From the sequence record ON528734: DNA of 64,000 bases; one strand, written 5' to 3'. This document shows positions 2,753-62,971 of the stretch, piece after piece (the first letter of the stretch is position 1; every line of letters starts with the position of its first letter). Origin of the DNA: Shigella phage ESh24. The position numbers and the translations under genes are program-made. Under the pieces are notes generated by a model that saw only the letters and a list, made by a program, of their open reading frames with translations, did no database searches and had not been told where the DNA came from.

Positions 2753-3043
2753 ATGAAATCTTCTCTGCGCTTTTTAGGTCAAGAACTTGTAGTTGAAGGC
2801 GTTATTCCTGCTGATAATGCTTTTAATGAAGCAGTTTATGATGAATTTATCAAAATTTTTGGAACAGATAAAAAGTTCGGAATTTTTCCTTCTGAAAATT
2901 TTTCAAAGCCAGAACAGACTGAAAGTATTTTTCAGGGTGTAGTAACAGGTAAATTTGAGTCAGAAGCTCCGGTAAAAATTGAAGTTTATATTGAAGACAG
3001 TTTAGTTGCTTCAGTTGCTGCTTTTATTTCATTCCGTAAATAA
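2753..3043 (+). CDS. hypothetical early protein (96 aa) between alt and gene 54
   Basis: ORF with its own early-type promoter, followed by a strong hairpin terminator. Confidence 0.55.
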   Translation: MKSSLRFLGQELVVEGVIPADNAFNEAVYDEFIKIFGTDKKFGIFPSENFSKPEQTESIFQGVVTGKFESEAPVKIEVYIEDSLVASVAAFISFRK

Positions 3044-3049
3044 AAATAT

Positions 3050-3067
3050 GGGGACCTTTCGGTCCCC
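3050..3067. terminator. bidirectional stem-loop terminator (GGGGACC-TTTC-GGTCCCC)
   Basis: Perfect 7 bp GC-rich stem between convergent ORF 2753..3043 (+) and gene 54 (-), with a T-rich flank. Confidence 0.7.
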
Positions 3068-3071
3068 ATTG

Positions 3072-4037
3072 TTATATTGCTCCTAATATTTTACTCTGCG
3101 AATTGACAATCCCTGTCATAGTATTAATGTTTGAAATGCTTCCTGCAGTTCCCCCTAATCTACTAAGTCGTGAAAGCGAATTAGATAGTCCAGTAACACC
3201 TCCACTATTTCCGAGAACGCTTTGAATACCATTTATAGCAGCAGATTCAAGCCATTCAAGCGCAGCTTGCCTATCAACTGCTCCAGCCTGCATCACTCTA
3301 TACGCAAAAGTAACGTCAAATGTAGTTATTTGGTTATCTCCATCATATGATAACTCAGGAGCGCTCACTGACACCGGAATGCATCCAGTGAACATCACCG
3401 CAGTATGTGGTAATCCATTGCGAGAATGAAGATTAACCTGAATATCTGCCTCGACATCTTGTGGCAAAGCTCGTAATCCAGTTACTGGGTCTTGAACAGC
3501 GTTAACCCAGTCTTGCATCGCACGATAATTACATGCTTCTGAATCCATTCTAAATGAAATAACCAAAGGGTCTAATTCTCTCCCAGTTATACGAATATTA
3601 GGAGAATTATAGTTCCAGTCAGTTTCATAGGATAATCTATTCTCTGGCATTTTTACAGAATATATCATCAATCCAGATGAGTTATATGCCATGTTAAAGA
3701 AGTCAATTAAATATGTACCAACTGTAAACGAGCCTAATAAACTTTGAACTGTACGTTGACTCATGGCACCAATAAGATATTTACTAACCCCTGATTTTCT
3801 TATCAGTTTTTGTGTGCCAGCTGTAATTAGCGTGGTAATTCCCTGATTAATATCACCTTGAGTCAATCCTAACCAATCTGAATTTAGACCCAAGTTATTA
3901 TAAGAAAAGTTGCTAATTGAACTTATCAACGAAGAGCTTTTAGTTGATGGAGTTGTCGCAAAAACGCAGCTAAACATATTATTACGTTGGAAATCTGCGT
4001 TTATTGCTTGATTATTAAATTCCTCTAAAGAATACAT
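3072..4037 (-). CDS. 54: baseplate tail tube initiator gp54
   Basis: 321 aa; position and length match T4 gp54 in the 54-48-29 block. Confidence 0.85.
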   Translation of the reverse strand: MYSLEEFNNQAINADFQRNNMFSCVFATTPSTKSSSLISSISNFSYNNLGLNSDWLGLTQGDINQGITTLITAGTQKLIRKSGVSKYLIGAMSQRTVQSLLGSFTVGTYLIDFFNMAYNSSGLMIYSVKMPENRLSYETDWNYNSPNIRITGRELDPLVISFRMDSEACNYRAMQDWVNAVQDPVTGLRALPQDVEADIQVNLHSRNGLPHTAVMFTGCIPVSVSAPELSYDGDNQITTFDVTFAYRVMQAGAVDRQAALEWLESAAINGIQSVLGNSGGVTGLSNSLSRLSRLGGTAGSISNINTMTGIVNSQSKILGAI

Positions 4038-5131
4038 TAAAAAGTCCCCGCATATAAAGAAGCACGGTTTAACGTGATAATTTCTCTCATAGTAATCTCG
4101 AGAGTAAATGTACTAGGGAGGTTTGGAGCAATAGCTAATCCGTTAAAGTTACCGTTAGGTGTTTTATCAAATCTAATGCTTTGTATTTGGCATGGACCAA
4201 ATATTTCCGTTTTTCCATCAAACTTAGATGTTGCACCAAAGTTTTTCACCATCCAAATTGTCGGGTTTGAAACTACTAGAACGTTAGTTAAACTCGATGT
4301 CATTTTCTCAAATAGTGTTTTATTTTTAGCTGCGTCTTCCGGAGATAAAGGTTCAATTAATGTAGAACGATACCAGTCATCTAAATACCCCTTTATTTCA
4401 GCAGCATATTGAGATTTACCCGTTTCACCATAAGAAAAATAGTTAAAATATTGATAGATATTAATGATAGCCATTAAATCTTCTGTTGAGCGTGGAGTCA
4501 AATCCCATGTAAACACTTTAGTTCTATTTTCAGCACCACCGTACATACTTCTGGCTGTCGTATAAATCTGTTCATTATTATCAGCCATTATACCTTGTGT
4601 TATACTTTCCAGTGCCCCAAATACTGCGGTTGAAGCAATATTACTTAACACACCAGTAGCAGTACCTCCGCCTCTACTGATAAGGCTTTCTTGAACATCA
4701 TTAAATCTATGTGATGATGTGTCAACATCAGATTTAGATCTCGGTAAAAGAATGTTTGCGACAGGAGCTTTACTTATTGTTCCTGAATTATTATTTGATA
4801 TTAATCCATTTGATAGTTTTGATACTGTACTACTAATAGTGTTTCTAGCTGTACTCAAAATACCTGAAGACGCAGAAGAGTAGTTAGATCTCATCGATCT
4901 AAGACTTCCAGAATCCCTAGATGACATATTGTATGCAGTAAATAATAATCCATTCTTATATAGATCTGTTACCTGGAAGTCCCCTGTAGTGTCATTACCA
5001 CTAGCACGCCCAGTTGGAAACTGGGCTGTGTATGTTTTAGTTACTACTTCTGATTTAGTGCTCTGTCCAGCTGAAATTTTCTCACCGGACTTTTTAATTA
5101 AATCAGTAGTTATTTCTTTAACAATTGCCAT
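4037..5131 (-). CDS. 48: baseplate tail tube cap gp48
   Basis: 364 aa; T4 gp48 length and position. Confidence 0.85.
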   Translation of the reverse strand: MAIVKEITTDLIKKSGEKISAGQSTKSEVVTKTYTAQFPTGRASGNDTTGDFQVTDLYKNGLLFTAYNMSSRDSGSLRSMRSNYSSASSGILSTARNTISSTVSKLSNGLISNNNSGTISKAPVANILLPRSKSDVDTSSHRFNDVQESLISRGGGTATGVLSNIASTAVFGALESITQGIMADNNEQIYTTARSMYGGAENRTKVFTWDLTPRSTEDLMAIINIYQYFNYFSYGETGKSQYAAEIKGYLDDWYRSTLIEPLSPEDAAKNKTLFEKMTSSLTNVLVVSNPTIWMVKNFGATSKFDGKTEIFGPCQIQSIRFDKTPNGNFNGLAIAPNLPSTFTLEITMREIITLNRASLYAGTF

Positions 5132-5139
5132 ATTATTCC

Positions 5140-6912
5140 TTAATTAACTCCAGTCGCATCAAATACACCAGGAGCAGTTGTGCTTGTGACAGGTGTCATA
5201 TTATGAACGACAGTATTTTTCTTAATAACATTATTAGTATTATTGATTGAAGGAGATGCTTGCTGAACAGGAGCTTGCTGTGCTTTGTTCTTTTCAATAA
5301 CCTGGACCTGTTTCGCTTCTGGCGATTTAGCAGAAGTTTCAGGTTTGGCATTAGGCTGATTTTTCTTGAGCTCTTGATAAGTAGCATCAATTTTAGAAAA
5401 TCTAGCAGCAAGTTCTTTTTTAACTGCCGGTGAATTATTTAAATCCGGGTCATCCATCCGTTTTTTAAGGTCTTCATAGGCAGATTCAACTGATTTAACC
5501 GTTGAGTCTTTACTCATATCAGCTGAATCAGCATATTTTTCAAAGCGAATCATCGCAGCACGAGCTTCATTAGCCTTCATTAAAGCATTTTTTCTTTCTT
5601 CAGGTGAAAGTTGCTTTAATTTTTCTTCTTCTGCTGCACGTTCTTCGTCGGTAGTTAGTGCTTCTTTATTATCAACACCGCGAATCCAATTAGATGCGCG
5701 AGTTTTCCAGTTCGCAATCTTGTCTAATCCTTTTGCTATCGGACCAAGGTCTCCATTCATTCTTTTATCTTGATAATTTGCAACTTTTTCCTGGTCTTCT
5801 TTATTGAGAGATGCTCCAGTAGAATTTTGGAAATTTTCTAGTGCTCTTCCTTCTACTTCGTCAGCAGTATCCTTCATGCCAGGAATGACTCGAAGAATTG
5901 CTGCAGATAATTTAGCCATACCTAATTGAATAAGTTCACCTAAATTAAAAAGAACACTTCCGAGTCCTTCAACAATAGCTGCTGTCAATCCACCCCAATC
6001 TCCCGCTTCCCAAAGTTGTTTAATTTTATCAATAGAATCAAAGATGCTCTGTAATAAAGGACCCCATGTTCCGGTTTCGCTAGAGAATTTAGTAAAATCA
6101 GTATTAAATAAATCCCAGGCTTTTGAAAATTTATCTGACCAGTATTTAAAATGAACCATCAACAGGTCTATTCCAACAACAACAGCCAATATCATTGCAG
6201 TCATTTTAGCAGCTTCAATAGCAGCACTAACGGTGTACTTAAATAACATGCTTGATATTTTATCAGTAATTGAAATGGATTTTTTAAATCCAAAATCAAC
6301 TGTCTTTGTTAATTTATCTAAAGCTTGAGATAATTTTAAGTTAAATGCTTCTTTTTTCTGTTTTTCTTCTGGTGATTCTTGCTTTGGCTCAACTGGCTGA
6401 GGGGTCGGGAAAAAATCAGCATCAGGGTCATTATTAACTGCTTCAGGAGCCGGTAATAAAGGACCCACAGATTCAGCTGTATCATCCTCAACGACTTTAA
6501 CAGGAATAGCGCTTTCAACTGTGGCTAAACTAGTTCCCGTCTGTTGAATTCCAGCTGTCTGAATTTTTTGCTCTAGTAAACTTGTTAATTTATCTAATTT
6601 GCTTCCGAGTGATTCACCGATTTCTTTATTAATATTGTTGCCAATTTCGACAGTTTCAGCAATTAACTCAGAACCGGCAGTAGTATCACTCACTGCGCTT
6701 TCTACGTTACCAATTGCTCCAACTATTTCATTAGATTTTTCTTCGACAGTTTGAGCTATTAATTCAGAGGCAGCTTGAGCATCATCCAATTTCGTAGATA
6801 TATCGTTAAGTCCAGATAAAGTGTTAGAAGCGGATTTAGCCGCTTCCTGTGTTGGTTTATTATCTGAAATAACTTTTCTACGCATCGTTTGCATTTCTTG
6901 TGGCTTTTTCAT
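5140..6912 (-). CDS. 29: tail length tape-measure / baseplate hub protein gp29
   Basis: 590 aa; T4 gp29 length and position. Confidence 0.85.
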   Translation of the reverse strand: MKKPQEMQTMRRKVISDNKPTQEAAKSASNTLSGLNDISTKLDDAQAASELIAQTVEEKSNEIVGAIGNVESAVSDTTAGSELIAETVEIGNNINKEIGESLGSKLDKLTSLLEQKIQTAGIQQTGTSLATVESAIPVKVVEDDTAESVGPLLPAPEAVNNDPDADFFPTPQPVEPKQESPEEKQKKEAFNLKLSQALDKLTKTVDFGFKKSISITDKISSMLFKYTVSAAIEAAKMTAMILAVVVGIDLLMVHFKYWSDKFSKAWDLFNTDFTKFSSETGTWGPLLQSIFDSIDKIKQLWEAGDWGGLTAAIVEGLGSVLFNLGELIQLGMAKLSAAILRVIPGMKDTADEVEGRALENFQNSTGASLNKEDQEKVANYQDKRMNGDLGPIAKGLDKIANWKTRASNWIRGVDNKEALTTDEERAAEEEKLKQLSPEERKNALMKANEARAAMIRFEKYADSADMSKDSTVKSVESAYEDLKKRMDDPDLNNSPAVKKELAARFSKIDATYQELKKNQPNAKPETSAKSPEAKQVQVIEKNKAQQAPVQQASPSINNTNNVIKKNTVVHNMTPVTSTTAPGVFDATGVN

Positions 6913-9361: not shown

Positions 9362-9988
9362 ATGTATGAATATAAATTTGACGTGAGAGTTGGTTCTAAA
9401 ATAATCAATTGTCGCGCATTCACGCTTAAAGAATATCTAGAACTTATTACTGCTAAAAATAATGGTTCTGTAGAAGTAATTGTTAAAAAGCTAATCAAAG
9501 ACTGCACAAATGCAAAAGATTTAAACCGCCAAGAATCAGAACTATTGTTGATTCATTTATGGGCACATTCTCTTGGTGAAGTTAATCACGAAAACTCCTG
9601 GAAGTGCACCTGTGGAACTGAAATACCAACCCATATAAATCTATTACATACACAAATAGATGCACCAGAAGACCTCTGGTATACACTGGGTGACATTAAA
9701 ATTAAATTCCATTACCCTAAAATTTTTGATGATAAAAATATAGCCCACATGATAGTATCATGTATAGAAACGATTCACGCTAACGGGGAAAGCATTCCAG
9801 TTGAAGACTTAAATGAAAAAGAACTGGAAGATTTATATTCTATCATCACAGAGTCAGATATTGTAGCTATAAAAGATATGCTTTTAAAGCCTACTGTTTA
9901 TTTGGCTGTTCCAATTAAGTGTCCAGAGTGTGGAAAATCTCATGCTCATGTAATAAGAGGACTCAAAGAATTCTTTGAGCTATTATAA
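9362..9988 (+). CDS. 26: baseplate hub subunit gp26
   Basis: 208 aa; T4 gp26 length and position. Confidence 0.85.
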
Positions 9989-25957: not shown

Positions 25958-29098
<3,141 letters not shown>

Positions 29099-52116: not shown

Positions 52117-52189
52117 TGGGAATTAGCCAAGTTGGTAAGGCATAGCACTTTGACTGCTAGATGCAAAGGTTCGAGTCCTTTATTCCCAG
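52117..52189 (+). tRNA. tRNA-Gln (anticodon UUG)
   Basis: Acceptor TGGGAAT/ATTCCCA, anticodon loop CTTTGAC, T-arm GGTTCGAGTCC. Confidence 0.8.
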
Positions 52190-52190
52190 C

Positions 52191-52277
52191 GCGAGAATGG
52201 TCAAATTGGTAAAGGCACAGCACTTAAAATGCTGCGGAATGATTTCCTTGTGGGTTCGAGTCCCACTTCTCGCACCA
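52191..52277 (+). tRNA. tRNA-Leu (anticodon UAA), type II long variable arm
   Basis: Acceptor GCGAGAA/TTCTCGC, loop CTTAAAA, encoded CCA. Confidence 0.8.
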
Positions 52278-52282
52278 AATTT

Positions 52283-52356
<74 letters not shown>

Positions 52357-52402
52357 ATTTATGACTCGTCGTGAGACGCTCAGTTCTTTATTAGGGACTG
52401 AT

Positions 52403-53011
52403 ATGCATTTTTATCTTTATAAAATAACAAATAAAATTAATAATAAAATTTATATTGGTGTGCATTCTACCGAAAATTTAGATGATGGATATATGGGTTC
52501 TGGTAAATTATTAAAAAGAGCCCAAGATAAATATGGTATAGAAAATTTTTCTAAAGAAATATTAGAGTATTTTGACGATAAAGAATCTATGCTTGAAGCC
52601 GAGAAAAATATTGTCACAGAAGAGTTTTTAAATAGACCAGATGTGTATAATTTAAAACTTGGAGGTGAAGGTGGATGGGATCATATAAATAATTATCCTA
52701 TGACAGATCAGCAACGCGAATTAATTTCATTGGGTGTTAAAAAGGCACATTCTAATGGAAAATTAAAAGGATGGTCTTCAAATGGATTAATGAAGAATGG
52801 CTTTGCTGGTAAAACTCATTCTCAAGAAGCTAAACGTAAAATAGCAAAAGCAAACGAAGCAAAAGTTTCTGTGGATGAAAGAAAAAGAAGAATAGAAATT
52901 TCTAAATTATATGATTTTTCTAAACGTGGCGAATTGTCTAAATATGCTAAGCATATTGGCGTAAGTCATACTCAAGCAAAAAGAATTCTAAATCAAATTA
53001 ACAATATATAA
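52403..53011 (+). CDS. segB: GIY-YIG homing endonuclease (SegB-like) inside the tRNA cluster
   Basis: Start set at MHFYLYKITNKINNKIYIGV (GIY-YIG core; track start 52361 abuts tRNA-Gly with no RBS); basic C-terminal DNA-binding region. Confidence 0.8.
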   Translation: MHFYLYKITNKINNKIYIGVHSTENLDDGYMGSGKLLKRAQDKYGIENFSKEILEYFDDKESMLEAEKNIVTEEFLNRPDVYNLKLGGEGGWDHINNYPMTDQQRELISLGVKKAHSNGKLKGWSSNGLMKNGFAGKTHSQEAKRKIAKANEAKVSVDERKRRIEISKLYDFSKRGELSKYAKHIGVSHTQAKRILNQINNI

Positions 53012-53017
53012 ATATTT

Positions 53018-53107
53018 GGAGGCGTGGCAGAGTGGTTTAATGCACCGGTCTTGAAAATCGGCAGTCGCTCCGGCGACTCATAGGTTCAAATCCTATCGCC
53101 TCCGCCA
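53018..53107 (+). tRNA. tRNA-Ser (anticodon UGA), type II
   Basis: Acceptor GGAGGCG/CGCCTCC, loop CTTGAAA, long variable arm, CCA. Confidence 0.8.
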
Positions 53108-53112
53108 GTTTT

Positions 53113-53188
53113 GCTGATTTAGCTTAGTAGGTAGAGCAACTCACTTGTAATGAGAAGGTCGGCGGTTCGATTCCGTCAATCAGCACCA
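53113..53188 (+). tRNA. tRNA-Thr (anticodon UGU)
   Basis: Full cloverleaf traced by hand (acceptor GCTGATT/AATCAGC, loop CTTGTAA). Confidence 0.8.
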
Positions 53189-53189
53189 A

Positions 53190-53264
53190 GGCCCTGTAGC
53201 TGGAAGGTTCAAGCAAGCGACTCATAATCGCCAGATGGTGGTTCAATTCCACCCAGGGCCACCA
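53190..53264 (+). tRNA. tRNA with CAU anticodon, Ile2 (lysidine) type
   Basis: Loop CTCATAA; anticodon arm GCGACTCATAATCGC resembles the bacterial ileX type rather than Met. Confidence 0.7.
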
Positions 53265-53276
53265 AATTATGAATTA

Positions 53277-53363
53277 GGGGAGTTATCCCGTAGAGGTAGC
53301 GGTGTGGACTGTAAATCCATTGTCATTGCGACTCGGGTGGTTCGACTCCATCACTCCCCACCA
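53277..53363 (+). tRNA. tRNA-Tyr (anticodon GUA), type II
   Basis: Acceptor GGGGAGT/ACTCCCC, loop CTGTAAA, long variable arm. Confidence 0.7.
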
Positions 53364-53367
53364 ATTT

Positions 53368-53443
53368 GGATGTGTAGCTCAATGGCAGAGCGATCGCCTG
53401 TTAAGCGATTGGTTATAGGTTCGAATCCTATCACGTCCGCCAA
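53368..53443 (+). tRNA. tRNA-Asn (anticodon GUU)
   Basis: Acceptor GGATGTG/CACGTCC, loop CTGTTAA. Confidence 0.7.
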
Positions 53444-53446
53444 ATA

Positions 53447-53522
53447 CGAGGCATAGCTCAGAAGGAAGAGCAAGGACCTTCTAAGTCCTAGGTCGTAGGT
53501 TCGATCCCTACTGCCTCGACCA
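53447..53522 (+). tRNA. tRNA-Arg (anticodon UCU)
   Basis: Full cloverleaf traced by hand; loop CTTCTAA; CCA encoded. Confidence 0.8.
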
Positions 53523-53538
53523 ATTAAGTGAGGAAAAT

Positions 53539-53889
53539 ATGAAAGGTAATGTTTATTTAGTAGTTCACGATTTAACATTTTATTTTAATCACAATGACAC
53601 TGTTATTTCTGAACGTGTAATTAATTTGCTTTATCAACACGCGGATTATGTTTATGTCGAAAACGAATATGGTCATTGGCAATTTCTCAAAAATCGTTCA
53701 TTTGGCTTAGATGGTTACGAATACTTTGAACGTAAAGACCTTTTAGATAAAATTCCGTTATCTACGCAATATCAAAATCACGAGTCTTTATATAAATGCC
53801 GTCCAATTCGAAATGCTGAATCTGCGTATGAAGCAATTGATTTATGGCGTAAACGTCGTGAACAGATTGATGCTTTAAAAGAATATTAA
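53539..53889 (+). CDS. hypothetical protein (116 aa)
   Basis: GAGGAAA RBS 6 nt upstream of the ATG. Confidence 0.6.
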   Translation: MKGNVYLVVHDLTFYFNHNDTVISERVINLLYQHADYVYVENEYGHWQFLKNRSFGLDGYEYFERKDLLDKIPLSTQYQNHESLYKCRPIRNAESAYEAIDLWRKRREQIDALKEY

Positions 53890-54230
53890 GAAACCGGGTC
53901 GCTACCGGTAAGTCGTCGGACTGATGTTCCCTGGGTAAGGAATCGTGTTAATAAATCTTTATGATTTGTTGATGCCCTCTTACATCACAGCAGAAACGGC
54001 GCACCGAATTATCGATTCGAGGAAATATCTTTGCCGTAAGCCGAGTAGCGTTTTTGACGGAACGTTCGGATATGGTCGAGATATGGCCTTTTAAAAAAAT
54101 ATTGAGTAGCGTCAACTGCTTAATAACCGGGTTCGAATCCCGGCGTTTCGTACAAACACTTGCCTTAGCAGGTGGAACCCCGACAAGGTTGCCGCAAGGC
54201 TTAGCCCCGACCGAAAGGTTGGGGCTTTTT
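53890..54230 (+). ncRNA. candidate small stable RNA region (T-arm-like hairpin and strong terminator)
   Basis: No convincing ORF; CCGGGTTCGAATCCCGG T-arm-like element at about 54124-54142; ends with a 10 bp GC stem (AGCCCCGACC-GAAA-GGTTGGGGCT) plus TTTTT at 54203-54230. Confidence 0.35.

Positions 54231-58077: not shown

Positions 58078-58096
<19 letters not shown>
57776..58096 (+). CDS. small membrane protein (paralog)
   Basis: 106 aa; hydrophobic helices; C-terminus ...FITECRKLQ. Confidence 0.55.
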
Positions 58097-59065
<969 letters not shown>

Positions 59066-59069
59066 AGTT

Positions 59070-59099
59070 GTTTACTTTCTCCTAAAACTGTGATAGTAT
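59070..59099 (+). promoter_or_regulatory. early-type promoter (GTTTAC, 18 bp spacer, TAGTAT) inside a 7 bp inverted repeat
   Basis: ACTGTGA/TCACAGT flank the -10 hexamer. Confidence 0.45.
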
Positions 59100-59136
59100 A
59101 TTCACAGTTACTAATTAAAATATTTAAAGGAAACAC

Positions 59137-59718
59137 ATGAAAACGTATAAAGAATTTATCGCTGAAGCTTCTGTGGAAAAGGCCAAAGGCATTAATAAAG
59201 ATGAGTGGACCTACCGTTCGGGAAACGGCTTTGACCCTAAAACGGCTCCTATTGAACGGTACTTAGCTACAAAGGCTTCCGACTTTAAAGCCTTCGCTTG
59301 GGAAGGACTTCGTTGGCGTACCGATTTAAATATTGAAGTTGATGGACTTAAATTTGGCCATATTCAGGATGTTGTTGCTAGTAACTTAGACGCAGCTTTT
59401 GTTAAAGCCGACGGTGACCTTCGTCGCTGGAATTTAAAACTGTTCTCTAAACAGAAAGGCCCGGTGTTTGTGCCTAAAGCTGGTAAATGGGTTATTGATA
59501 ATAAATTAGCTAAGGCTGTCAACTACGCTGGTCTTGAATTCGCCAAGCACAAATCATCATGGAGAAGTCTTGATGCAATGGCCTTCCGTAAAGAATTCGC
59601 CGAGGTTATGACTAAAGGCGGCTTTAAGGCAGAACTAGATACCTCTAAAGGTACGTTTAAAGACGCTAATGTTCAGTACGCTTACGCCGTTGCTAATGCA
59701 GCCCGCGGTAATTCTTAA
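59137..59718 (+). CDS. ipIII: internal protein III-like (capsid-targeted)
   Basis: 193 aa; N-terminus MKTYKEFIAEA; position immediately after e. Confidence 0.75.
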   Translation: MKTYKEFIAEASVEKAKGINKDEWTYRSGNGFDPKTAPIERYLATKASDFKAFAWEGLRWRTDLNIEVDGLKFGHIQDVVASNLDAAFVKADGDLRRWNLKLFSKQKGPVFVPKAGKWVIDNKLAKAVNYAGLEFAKHKSSWRSLDAMAFRKEFAEVMTKGGFKAELDTSKGTFKDANVQYAYAVANAARGNS

Positions 59719-59826
59719 TAAAGCCGAGTTCGAACCTGGTAATTGATAAATACAGAAACGGGCAATTCATGTGTGTGAATTGCCTCAAACTTAAAGAATA
59801 AAACTATTTACATTTAAAGGAAACAC

Positions 59827-60300
59827 ATGAAAACATATCAAGAATTTATTACTGAAGCAGCTATTAATTCTCAAATTATTGCTGAATCTTTTACTGATCT
59901 TTTGAAATTTAAAAAAGGACAGAAAATCACTGCTGTATTGGATGATGGTACAGAAGTTGAGATGGATGTGCAAGGATATAATTATGCAGTAGATGGAAAA
60001 CTGTATAATAAATCTCATGCTAAATTTGATTCATTTGACGACTTTGTTAATACAGTTGAAGATGAAAAAACTCGTCGATCCATTGCAACTGGTGATGCTA
60101 AGGTTCTTATGGCACATGGTCATGAACGCATTCGCGCTAAACAGAATAAAATGGGTGAAGATAATTTTGCATTAGTCGGTTATCAATCTGGTAAACAAAC
60201 CTATGGTTATCAGCGTACTGCTACCATGTATAACAAAAATGGTAAAATTGCCTTTGTAAATAGTAAAGGTTCTATTCAGTACGTTAAATCATTCAAATAA
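59827..60300 (+). CDS. internal-protein-like protein (157 aa) at the ipII position
   Basis: N-terminus MKTYQEFITEA; shares the 15 nt upstream sequence ATTTAAAGGAAACAC with the 59137 gene. Confidence 0.7.
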   Translation: MKTYQEFITEAAINSQIIAESFTDLLKFKKGQKITAVLDDGTEVEMDVQGYNYAVDGKLYNKSHAKFDSFDDFVNTVEDEKTRRSIATGDAKVLMAHGHERIRAKQNKMGEDNFALVGYQSGKQTYGYQRTATMYNKNGKIAFVNSKGSIQYVKSFK

Positions 60301-60453
60301 GCAAATAAGAAATATGGGAACAAACTGGACCTCATGATTCTGTGAGGGATTCCCGCCAACCTGTAATAAGGTCGAGCCCAAGTGCGGTAATGGGTAAATA
60401 CAGAAATGGACAATTCATGCGCCACGGAATGGCCCAAACTTAGAGAGAATAAA

Positions 60454-60996
60454 ATGAGAACATTTTTAACTGGTCCTTATCTATCCCTGATGAATGCTTT
60501 TACACACCATTCTGATGCTAGAGTAGAAGAAATTTGTAAGAATGATTATCTTCCACCAATGGAAGATGTGCTCAAACAGTACTGCACACTTCGTATAGAT
60601 GGTGGACGTCAATCCGGTAAATCAATTGCTGTGACTAACTTTGCTGCTAATTGGCTGTATGATGGCGGAACAGTTATTGTTCTTTCTAATACTTCAGCTT
60701 ACGCTAAAATTTCTGCAAATAACATTAAAAAGGAATTTTCGCGTTATTCTAATGATGATATACGTTTTCGTTTATTTACTGATTCTGTCCGTAGTTTTAT
60801 CGGTAATGAAGGTCATAAATTCCGTGGGTTATCGCTTTCTCGTATCTTGTACATAATTGACGAACCTATTAAAGCTCCTGATATGGATAAGATTTACAAT
60901 ATCCATATTAAAACGGTACAACACTGTTGTCGAAGCTATAATGCTGAAACAGGTGAAACAGTTCGTCCTCAATTTTTTGTGATTGGAATGCAATGA
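60454..60996 (+). CDS. small P-loop NTPase (Walker A GGRQSGKS, Walker B LYIIDEP)
   Basis: Start set at MRTFLTG (GAGAGAATAAA RBS), about 180 aa. Confidence 0.6.
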   Translation: MRTFLTGPYLSLMNAFTHHSDARVEEICKNDYLPPMEDVLKQYCTLRIDGGRQSGKSIAVTNFAANWLYDGGTVIVLSNTSAYAKISANNIKKEFSRYSNDDIRFRLFTDSVRSFIGNEGHKFRGLSLSRILYIIDEPIKAPDMDKIYNIHIKTVQHCCRSYNAETGETVRPQFFVIGMQ

Positions 60997-61322
60997 TGAC
61001 AGACACACAGCTTTTCGAATATCTTTATTTTTCGCCAAAAACTATTAAAAATAAATTGGTGAATCATTTTGAAATTTTGGCAAATAACAACATTTTGAGC
61101 GAATTTTATCCCAAGCAATACAAATTACAAAAAGGCGTATTCAAAGGATGCAGAGTTTTGTGCACGGCTCCTAATGCACGGCTAATGAATAAAATTCCAT
61201 ATTTTACCATGGAATTTATTGATGGGCCTTTTAAAGGACTAATCACGCAGAGTTTAATGGCATATGATTCTGAGCCATTTTTAATTAAAGAACAATCTTG
61301 GATAAATTTATTTTCTAATTGA
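60993..61322 (+). CDS. hypothetical protein (109 aa), translationally coupled to the P-loop NTPase
   Basis: ATGA start/stop overlap with the upstream gene. Confidence 0.55.
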
Positions 61323-61329
61323 GGTTTAT

Positions 61330-61692
61330 ATGAAAGCATATCAAATTCTTGAAGGCACGCATAAAGGTACTATTTATTTTGAAGATGGTATTCAAGCACG
61401 AATTATTGTCTCTAAAACCTTTAAAGAGGACTCTTTTGTAGACCCAGAAATTTTCTACGGTTTGCATGCCCGTGAAATTGAAATTGAAACACAACCTACA
61501 GTTAAAATTGAAGGTGGTCAACACCTGAACGTTAACGTTCTGCGTCGTGAAACTCTGGAAGATGCAGTTAAGCATCCGGAAAAATATCCGCAGCTGACCA
61601 TCCGTGTATCCGGTTATGCAGTTCGCTTTAACTCTCTGACTCCGGAACAGCAGCGCGACGTTATCGCTCGTACCTTCACCGAGAGTTTGTAA
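61330..61692 (+). CDS. autonomous glycyl-radical cofactor, GrcA/YfiD-like
   Basis: C-terminal [57 protein letters not shown] carries the RVSGY glycyl-radical motif; the 3' half uses CTG/CGT/CCG codons unlike the rest of the window. Confidence 0.85.
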
Positions 61693-61913
61693 TGGCAAAG
61701 ATAATTATTGAAGGTTCTAAAGATGTGCTAAATGCTTTCGCCGAGTGGTTTAGTAATTCAGGCGAACAGCAATTTAATGAAGCATGGAACATGGGTGATA
61801 TTAATGGAATTTATCCTACGACAGAAATTTCTGTTCAGGGATATGGCATTCATGAACCTATTCGTTTAGTTGAATATGATTTATGCACTGGTGAGGAAGT
61901 CAAATATGATTGA
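61692..61913 (+). CDS. hypothetical protein (73 aa)
   Basis: TAATG stop/start overlap with the GrcA-like gene. Confidence 0.5.
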   Translation: MAKIIIEGSKDVLNAFAEWFSNSGEQQFNEAWNMGDINGIYPTTEISVQGYGIHEPIRLVEYDLCTGEEVKYD

Positions 61914-62172
61914 AGATATTAAAGGTTATAAGCCACATACCGACGAAAAAATCGGTAAAGTAAATGCTATTAAAGACGCTGAAGTTCGTTTAGGACTTAT
62001 CTTTGATGCTTTATACGATGAATTTTGGGAAGCATTTGATAGCTGTGAAGATGATGAACTTGCGAAGAATTACGCCGAAAGCCTCGATCAGTTAACTATT
62101 GCTAAAACGAAACTCAAAGAAGCCAGTATGTGGGCTTGCCGTGCTGTGTTCCAACCAGAGGAAAAATACTAA
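61906..62172 (+). CDS. hypothetical acidic protein (88 aa)
   Basis: Start set at MIEDIKG, overlapping the upstream stop. Confidence 0.5.
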
Positions 62173-62509: not shown

Positions 62510-62971
62510 ATGACTATCAACACAGAAGTTTTTATCCGTCGAAATAAGCTCCGTCGTCACTTTGAGTCGGAGTTTCGTCAAATTAACAATGAGATTCGTG
62601 AGGCATCAAAAGCAGCAGGAGTCTCATCGTTTCATCTAAAATATTCTCAACATCTTCTTGATCGTGCAATTCAACGGGAGATTGATGAGACATATGTTTT
62701 TGAATTATTCCATAAAATAAAAGACCATGTTTTAGAAGTTAATGAATTCCTGAGTATGCCTCCGCGTCCTGACATTGACGAGGATTTTATTGATGGGGTT
62801 GAATATCGTCCTGGACGTTTAGAAATCACAGATGGAAATCTTTGGCTTGGATTTACAGTTTGTAAACCTAACGAGAAGTTCAAAGACCCGTCACTTCAAT
62901 GTAGGATGGCAATTATCAACAGTCGTCGTTTACCAGGAAAGGCTTCTAAAGCAGTAATTAAAACTCAATGA
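62510..62971 (+). CDS. regB: RegB sequence-specific endoribonuclease
   Basis: 153 aa, MTINTEVFIRRNKLRRHFESEFRQINNEIRE...; own RBS contains GGAG. Confidence 0.92.
   Translation: MTINTEVFIRRNKLRRHFESEFRQINNEIREASKAAGVSSFHLKYSQHLLDRAIQREIDETYVFELFHKIKDHVLEVNEFLSMPPRPDIDEDFIDGVEYRPGRLEITDGNLWLGFTVCKPNEKFKDPSLQCRMAIINSRRLPGKASKAVIKTQ

Follow-up and report, generated by a model that had tools for sequence, protein, structure and literature searches.

The vs.8–vs.7 gene pair of Shigella phage ESh24: a terminase-like ATPase and its coupled neighbor behind a structured RNA element

Has a small P-loop ATPase gene, together with the gene coupled to it, taken the place of denV in Shigella phage ESh24? 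The question was raised by a 64,000-nucleotide stretch of this phage (record ON528734; hereafter the window). There, the original prediction had described an open reading frame (ORF) of about 180 residues with the Walker A motif GGRQSGKS and the Walker B motif LYIIDEP, joined by an ATGA overlap to a 109-residue ORF, downstream of two internal protein (IP) genes and at the position where T4 carries denV. What was read directly from the two ORFs holds, and the P-loop protein does not belong to a housekeeping kinase family but relates to the terminase ATPase. The supposed denV position, taken up below, does not survive comparison with T4. On their sequences the two ORFs are orthologs of T4 vs.8 and vs.7, an already known gene pair whose identity and architecture are secure. 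As a whole, the locus is best explained as an orthologous, translationally coupled pair, encoding a terminase-like ATPase and an adaptor and preceded by an RNA leader, a reading to which we give a probability of roughly 0.6. The features that define the pair are as follows.

60454-60996, plus strand: vs.8, encoding a 180-residue stand-alone P-loop ATPase
60601-60624, plus strand: Walker A/P-loop GGRQSGKS, residues 50-57, of the terminase type R-Q-x-G-K-[ST]
60847-60867, plus strand: Walker B and catalytic glutamate, LYIIDEP, residues 132-138
60993-60996, plus strand: stop/start overlap ATGA, vs.8 TGA with vs.7 ATG, read from the sequence
60993-61322, plus strand: vs.7, encoding a 109-residue putative partner, predicted to comprise two N-terminal helices and an SH3-like beta-barrel

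The orthology is close. T4 Vs.8 matches the window at 86.7% identity over 180 of 180 residues (tblastn) and T4 Vs.7 at 99.1% over its full length, while the window proteins match phrog_1488 (Vs.8 residues 3-180, E 1.4e-79) and phrog_2049 (Vs.7, E 3e-54). A tblastn search recovers vs.8 from 1009 phage records and vs.7 from 929. The order vs.8 then vs.7 is common to Tequatrovirus, Mosigvirus (RB69), Karamvirus, Kanagawavirus, Jiaodavirus, Dhakavirus, Moonvirus and Tegunavirus, the vs.7 homolog of the last being detected weakly. In all 10 annotated loci inspected, from at least 8 genera, the pair sits in the same slot: vs.8 lies between the IP/denV cassette and vs.7–vs.6, as judged from the gene orders of T4, RB51, wV7, RB69, T2, Shfl2 and five other genera. 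All 14 distinct junctions extracted from other phages, of several genera, have a stop/start overlap (ATGA in 11, TAATG in 3), which is therefore not a product of chance. The pair is therefore translationally coupled, is present in every Tevenvirinae genus sampled, and heads the vs.8–vs.3 block. T4 itself shares the order, the ATGA coupling and the downstream series vs.6–vs.3, regB, vs.1 and vs, and differs in nothing of substance except the annotated start of vs.8.

That start deserves comment. An upstream ATG at 60406, which would give a 196-residue protein, was rejected: the extension is not conserved in frame and overlies a conserved noncoding RNA. In the T4 record (MT984581, 3390-4040) vs.8 is annotated as 216 residues, with a far-upstream start that likewise overlies the RNA element. 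Judging from the sequences, this start is probably an annotation artifact and the 180-residue start the true one. The T2 record (LC348380, 3001-3536) is of another kind, with vs.8 recovered in three tblastn pieces and annotated as a 110-residue ORF. The breakage points to frameshifts or sequencing errors, and may mark a pseudogene.

Vs.8 is a free-standing paralog of ATPase subdomain I of the T4-type large terminase, gp17, and not a terminase. Family libraries assign it to the unnamed PHROG 1488, with PHROG 2, the large-terminase family, as a weak match (E 5.7e-5). More specifically, hhalign places a profile of 18 Vs.8 homologs on the window's own gp17 (25961-27793, minus strand), aligning Vs.8 49-147 with gp17 159-266 at E 2.8e-4. 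The alignment is in register at the functional motifs: DGGRQSGKS falls on 159-NLSRQLGKT-167, LYIIDEP on MIYIDEC at 251-257, and a conserved RG on the RG of gp17. Across the 18 homologs, which range down to 41% identity, DGGRQSGK, E137-P138 and a C-terminal G..Q are invariant, and Walker B residues Y133 and I135 are nearly so. It is this invariance that argues against chance as the source of the motifs. An AlphaFold model (predicted local distance difference test score, pLDDT, 80.8) shows a five-stranded RecA-like core, the fold of the solved terminase ATPase domain; the best Foldseek matches are RecA1 domains of RNA/DNA helicases and packaging ATPases, including the N-domain of phi29 gp16 (5hd9).

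The differences from gp17 (Terminase_6N; PDB 2o0h) are equally instructive. Vs.8 has only 180 residues and ends ...FFVIGMQ, directly after the strand that carries the coupling motif in gp17, with a terminal GMQ in place of TTT. Since it stops there, without the coupling (C) motif, ATPase subdomain II or the C-terminal nuclease domain, Vs.8 is a stand-alone subdomain I. To go by its motifs, it keeps what it takes to bind ATP and probably to hydrolyze it, but alone it would be unable to translocate or cut DNA. Other searches added little. BLASTP of Vs.8 against gp17 was uninformative apart from a weak match at the P-loop, sequence and profile searches of the PDB with Vs.8 returned nothing below E 0.18, PADLOC gave HerA alone for Vs.8 (E 0.031) and nothing for Vs.7, and NCBIfam matched neither protein. 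A recent preprint also notes the terminase homology and Walker motifs of Vs.8, and our assignment agrees with it (bioRxiv 10.64898/2026.04.30.721860).

Vs.7 belongs to a tiny family, with 14 representatives among 1.84 billion clustered proteins and 26 clusters in a larger collection; all named sources are phages. Its model is confident (pLDDT 89.6) and combines two N-terminal helices with a small barrel; the modeled C-terminal half appears SH3/KOW-like. The Pfam family PF26834 is a precomputed tag on Vs.7 relatives, and a Pfam search with the window's own Vs.7 gave no match. The idea that vs.7 might be the next piece of a split terminase can be discarded, as Vs.7 has no similarity to gp17. Conserved coupling and co-occurrence with vs.8 instead suggest that Vs.7 is a partner subunit of Vs.8.

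The remaining element of the locus is not a protein. Between Ip4 and vs.8 lies a gap of 153 nucleotides, most of which is taken up by an RNA with the following parts.

60315-60436, plus strand: structured RNA element of 122 nucleotides, the vs.8 leader (covariance model R1, 87.7 bits, E 5.7e-20)
60316-60320/60350-60354: helix P1, 5 base pairs
60325-60327/60401-60403: pseudoknot, its 5' strand in the P1 loop
60330-60334/60343-60347: hairpin P2, within the P1 loop
60356-60358/60391-60393: helix P3, 3-4 base pairs, stacked on P4
60359-60362/60369-60372: helix P4, ACCU-GUAAUA-AGGU, with loop GUAAUA
60376-60377/60384-60385: mini-hairpin P5
60386-60390: junction GGUAA, followed by the P3 3' strand and then the pseudoknot 3' strand
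60421-60424/60430-60433: hairpin P6, GCCA-NGGAA-UGGC, 15-25 nucleotides before the AUG

Nucleotide conservation over the 140 positions preceding vs.8 exceeds that of the proteins, with CCTGTAATAAGGTCGAGCCC..GCGGTAA.GGG and GCCA.GGAATGGCC recurring as blocks in eight genera in which Vs.8 is only 35-45% identical. The RNA core, ACCUGUAAUAAGGUC...GCGGUAA, is almost invariant and is framed by covarying helices. The element stands upstream of vs.8 in 36 of 36 T4-like loci with enough downstream DNA, and in T4 it starts directly after the denV stop codon. Owing to the pseudoknot, minimum free energy folding of single leader sequences gives conflicting structures, and comparative analysis was used instead, with a helix table covering 14 copies of the element from about a dozen lineages. 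RNAalifold recovers P3, P4, P5 and P6 unguided. Of the cells in 22 core sequences, 93.9% pair; covariation is seen at three pairs, and pair 6/39 is AU in 9, UA in 6, CG in 4 and UG in 3. In 12 full-length type-B sequences the paired share is 95.4%, and sliding the partners by 1-3 columns lowers it to 44.6% or less; there, P1, P3 and two of the pseudoknot pairs show compensatory changes. Matched pseudoknot strands form duplexes of -4.9 kcal/mol against -3.3 for mismatched ones, and 0 of 20,000 permutations were as good, a result inflated by relatedness. Because G-U pairs are frequent, the structure holds on the vs.8 sense strand only.

By the covariance model, the window and T2 have one copy each; Karamvirus PS49 and Kanagawavirus PEi20 each have two in tandem, and there P3 of the upstream copy is fully compensated to CUGG/CCAG. 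Copies in individual records include these:

Record L004, 2215-2333 and 2350-2469: RNA element
Record L005, 2222-2337 and 2357-2476: RNA element
Record L052 (T2), 2863-2984: RNA element

A Jiaodavirus-like contig also has a second, weak match at 9895-9983 on the minus strand (L027; 23.7 bits), about 310 nucleotides downstream of its main element, which holds another copy of the P6 hairpin sequence GCGCCAAGGAATGGCCCC.

Familiar identities were sought for the leader and set aside. Rfam 15 has no match to it, either with a 181-nucleotide query at E up to 10 or with 3.5 kilobases (kb) at E up to 1; nor has it any on the Vequintavirus copy described below, and the only Rfam hits in the other loci are transfer RNAs (tRNAs) and group I introns lying elsewhere. 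ARAGORN recognizes no cloverleaf in the leader and calls no tRNA gene in 59000-62000. Kinship with the T4 stable RNAs rnaC and rnaD fails for lack of sequence similarity. A conserved upstream ORF (the 'MCQGMAQ...' extensions) fails as well, since frame and stop differ by lineage and it is the nucleotides that are conserved. Neither the core sequence nor a T4 noncoding RNA at this locus brought up anything relevant in literature searches, and a promoter and terminator scan of 59700-61400 gave counts not above those of shuffled sequence, with no site in the leader. The structural support, together with the negative Rfam, tRNA and literature checks, leads us to take the 122-nucleotide element as a real structured RNA that appears new. 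It could be a leader, a processing site or ribozyme, or an RNA partner of Vs.8 or Vs.7.

How might the three components act together? We propose that Vs.8 binds and probably hydrolyzes ATP, and that Vs.7, made in step with it, most likely binds Vs.8 as an adaptor subunit. Loaded with ATP, the complex would then mimic the terminase ATPase and engage partners that recognize that fold, while the upstream RNA would either control expression of the two genes or be their RNA partner. That the pair works as such a mimic is a tentative suggestion, on which we would put clearly less than even odds. The setting is informative in this respect. Since vs.3 encodes TadIV-1 and vs.4, we presume, the cyclic-nucleotide sponge Acb2, the vs block is rich in counter-defense genes. 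A T4 vs.8–vs.3 fragment has been cloned with the native vs.8 promoter, and among those of its genes assayed one at a time, vs.3 (TadIV-1) was alone in inhibiting type IV Thoeris (PMC13243611). Vs.8, for its part, emerged from an in silico screen as an activator of the immune sensor EcAvs2, an activity shown by co-expression toxicity, and such activators have been suggested to be anti-defense proteins that Avs2 learned to detect (bioRxiv 10.64898/2026.04.30.721860). As the one documented partner is this host sensor, activated by Vs.8, the pair would most likely be a counter-defense or host-takeover factor, one that certain sensors have come to recognize. Ksap1 and Ksap2 offer a parallel: these non-terminase activators of Avs2 are likewise small, phage-encoded and built around a sheet like that of the terminase ATPase, although they come from other phage lineages, and Vs.8 is distinguished by keeping Walker A and B (bioRxiv 10.64898/2026.04.30.721860).

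Several observations weigh against this picture and temper our confidence in it. At the level of homology, the Pfam Terminase_6N model scores Vs.8 at 13.1 bits, below its 22-bit cut-off (E 0.077), the hhalign probability of the Vs.8–gp17 alignment is 41%, and neither the adenine-binding Q motif nor the TTT coupling motif of gp17 is conserved in Vs.8. At the level of function, Vs.8 activates rather than blocks EcAvs2, the reverse of the behavior expected from a simple decoy (bioRxiv 10.64898/2026.04.30.721860), and none of Vs.4-Vs.8, singly expressed, inhibited type IV Thoeris (PMC13243611). ATP hydrolysis by Vs.8 and the Vs.8–Vs.7 complex are themselves predictions.

The alternative with the best claim puts the RNA, rather than the proteins, at the center. 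The same core and helix order, with differing helix sequences, occur in nine further viral contigs of about six lineages, one group of which is Vequintavirus-like. P1 appears there as GGGG/CCCC, GGAAC/GUUCC, GCGU/ACGC or AAACA/UGUUU, and the pseudoknot as CCAG/CUGG, GAGG/CCUC or GGGUA/UACCC. P6 is restricted to the T4-like phages, and the stand-alone versions are without it. In all nine of these contigs the RNA lies inside or beside a tRNA cluster, on the tRNA strand, and without vs.8 and vs.7. Rescanning the viral sequences with a variant of the pattern added nothing new. A scan of 596 gigabases of bacterial and archaeal genomes gave 11 matches to the core pattern, which we regard as chance since all score at most 15 bits and have no tRNAs nearby. 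T4-type genes for the large terminase subunit (TerL) recur in the vicinity, at distances of 0.4-2.5 kb, and group I introns interrupt several of them. Contig L033 and the Vequintavirus-like loci have an intron-split TerL gene 0.5-2.5 kb downstream of the RNA; in contig L024 the RNA follows the terminase gene instead.

Contig L033, minus strand: RNA 6720-6755; TerL exons 4309-4677 and 2925-4067
Contig L053: RNA 643-729; TerL from 2917
Contig L024: TerL C-terminal part 150-950; RNA from 1313

On this basis the 122-nucleotide RNA might found a new phage RNA family with a pseudoknot—a ribozyme, a ligand or protein sensor, or a ribonucleoprotein scaffold—with vs.8–vs.7, in T4-like phages, as its dedicated cargo or protein partners in a module of RNA plus terminase-like ATPase. 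We consider this possible, though a shade more doubtful than the mimicry proposed above. If true, an RNA found in tRNA clusters near terminase genes would have an unrecognized role tied to packaging-type ATPases or to tRNA-targeting immunity. The proximity to terminase genes echoes the position before terminase-like vs.8, but inherited synteny, without any functional tie, may account for it. T4 rnaC and rnaD (species 1 and 2) are likewise small structured phage RNAs in a tRNA cluster, a position shared by the motif outside the T4-like phages; rnaC, however, has a tRNA-like 3' half, which the new motif does not. The window has its own such cluster at 52117-54153 on the plus strand, with nine tRNAs and homologs of rnaD (53889-54005) and rnaC (54012-54152), the 3' part of the latter being called 'tRNA-Phe(aaa)' by ARAGORN.

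Two narrower accounts of the RNA are unlikely, and to much the same degree. In one, RecA-like Vs.8 and SH3/KOW-like Vs.7 would act on, or assemble with, the upstream RNA, loosely in the manner of phi29 gp16 and its pRNA or of a helicase-like chaperone serving a ribozyme or another RNA. The order RNA–vs.8–vs.7 is kept in all T4-like loci checked despite the variable region upstream, SH3/KOW domains often bind nucleic acid, and both the helicase and packaging-ATPase fold matches of Vs.8 and the RNA–terminase proximity in other lineages fit. The phi29 analogy extends to the pairing of a packaging-type ASCE ATPase with a structured phage RNA, but the two RNAs are dissimilar in sequence and structure, and the T4-like element is not near head genes.

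In the other account, the RNA would be a purely cis-regulatory leader—a riboswitch, protein operator or processing site—and the proteins would serve in DNA metabolism or the control of packaging, for example by titrating gp16 or gp17. The placing of the conserved P6 just before the start codon in T4-like versions speaks for regulation, as do the tandem copies in Karamvirus and Kanagawavirus, which recall some riboswitches, and Vs.8 does have the nucleotide-binding subdomain of gp17. Yet P6 does not cover the ribosome-binding site, and outside the T4-like phages the motif is not found directly before an ORF. A part in packaging also sits poorly with timing, as we take the vs block, and hence Vs.8, to be expressed early, and packaging and gp17 late.

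There remains the idea from which we started, that the pair is a novel accessory or anti-defense module replacing denV in a hypervariable region. It is very improbable, although part of its premise is sound. No denV homolog is found in the 64-kb window (tblastn best E 3.1; the sole blastn match is a 19-nucleotide junction remnant), as had been predicted, nor in 163,900 of the 165,919 bases (98.8%) of Shfl2, whose collinear genome is 93-96% identical to the window and shares its cassette. Counter-defense sponges lie nearby, and the cassette upstream of vs.8, including the two IP genes already recognized there, varies. The upstream features in the window, and the cassettes between e and vs.8 in other phages, are these:

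58078-58533: nudE
58571-59065: e
59137-59718: ipIII (phrog_5341, E 1.6e-117)
59799-59817, plus strand: denV 3'-end remnant of 19 nucleotides, 18/19 identities to RB51 denV nucleotides 399-417 (blastn), just upstream of Ip4
59827-60300: Ip4 (DUF7412, E 5.7e-96; phrog_3155)
RB51, wV7 and ES12: denV-Ip4
T4: ipIII-ipII-denV
RB69: ORF-denV-three ORFs
T2: ipIV only
Window and 13 records, ECML-134, Shfl2 and PST among them: ipIII-Ip4

It is ipIII, not vs.8, that fills the exact slot held by denV in RB51, wV7 and ES12. Phage ES12 makes the point most sharply: its Vs.8 is 100% identical to that of the window, its genome is 95-97% identical overall and has denV in the RB51 arrangement, and the stretch over which the two diverge is exactly 59113-59798, occupied by denV in ES12 and by ipIII in the window. 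In T4 the order is e-ipIII-ipII-denV-vs.8-vs.7-vs.6. Because T4 thus carries the pair directly after denV, vs.8–vs.7 is not an alternative to it, and T4's own gene order already refutes 'replacement'. RB51, wV7, RB69, PEi20, PS49 and a Dhakavirus likewise carry both denV and the pair. T4 DenV is a mere neighbor in the gene order, and neither Vs.8 nor Vs.7 is similar to it. Variability, too, belongs in the samples examined to the upstream cassette and not to the pair, which about 1000 records carry.

The absence of denV is ordinary lineage variation. The window's lineage, with ipIII in the denV slot, lacks the gene from this cassette as do T2, where denV is not present in the e-to-vs.8 interval, and Shfl2. 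Among Escherichia phage records, denV matches (468) are fewer than vs.8 matches (551), which implies that T-even phages without denV are a common natural state. The heightened sensitivity of T2 to ultraviolet light is classically attributed to its absent v gene. Least credible of all is the notion that vs.8 is a decaying, nonfunctional fragment of a duplicated terminase gene and vs.7 a chance ORF: the three-piece vs.8 of the T2 record and the abrupt end of Vs.8 at the gp17 coupling-motif position would fit, but full-length frame, catalytic residues and C-terminal end are invariant across genera at 35-45% identity, the coupling overlap is conserved, and Vs.7 has a confident predicted fold and is 99% conserved between T4 and the window.

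The wider locus conforms to that of a Tequatrovirus, or T4-like phage, the plus strand of the window corresponding to the minus strand of T4. A 1.5-kb query around vs.8–vs.7 matches 886 phage records, the best being 95-98% identical (vB_EcoM_FT, wV7, RB51 and RB32 among them), and annotation in the best-matching records reads Ip4, then vs.8, vs.7, vs.6 and vs.5. Beyond vs.5, gene identities were inferred from collinearity with annotated relatives.

61330-61692, plus strand: vs.6, GrcA-like (Pfam Gly_radical, E 2.2e-18)
Between vs.6 and regB: vs.5, then ORFs at the vs.4 and vs.3 positions
62510-62971: regB, followed by ORFs at the vs.1 and vs positions

The vs.6 product is an autonomous glycyl-radical cofactor of the GrcA/YfiD type, its C-terminus nearly that of Escherichia coli GrcA.

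What, then, does the locus tell us about T4-like phages? The observation that first drew attention is of little weight in itself: a textbook T4 gene pair beside a natural absence of denV. The function of Vs.8 and Vs.7 would nonetheless explain why these phages retain a protein that gives them away to the immune systems of their hosts. The RNA before vs.8, and not the gene pair, is the item worth following, as a testable candidate for a new class of functional RNA and as a handle on regulation of the vs block.

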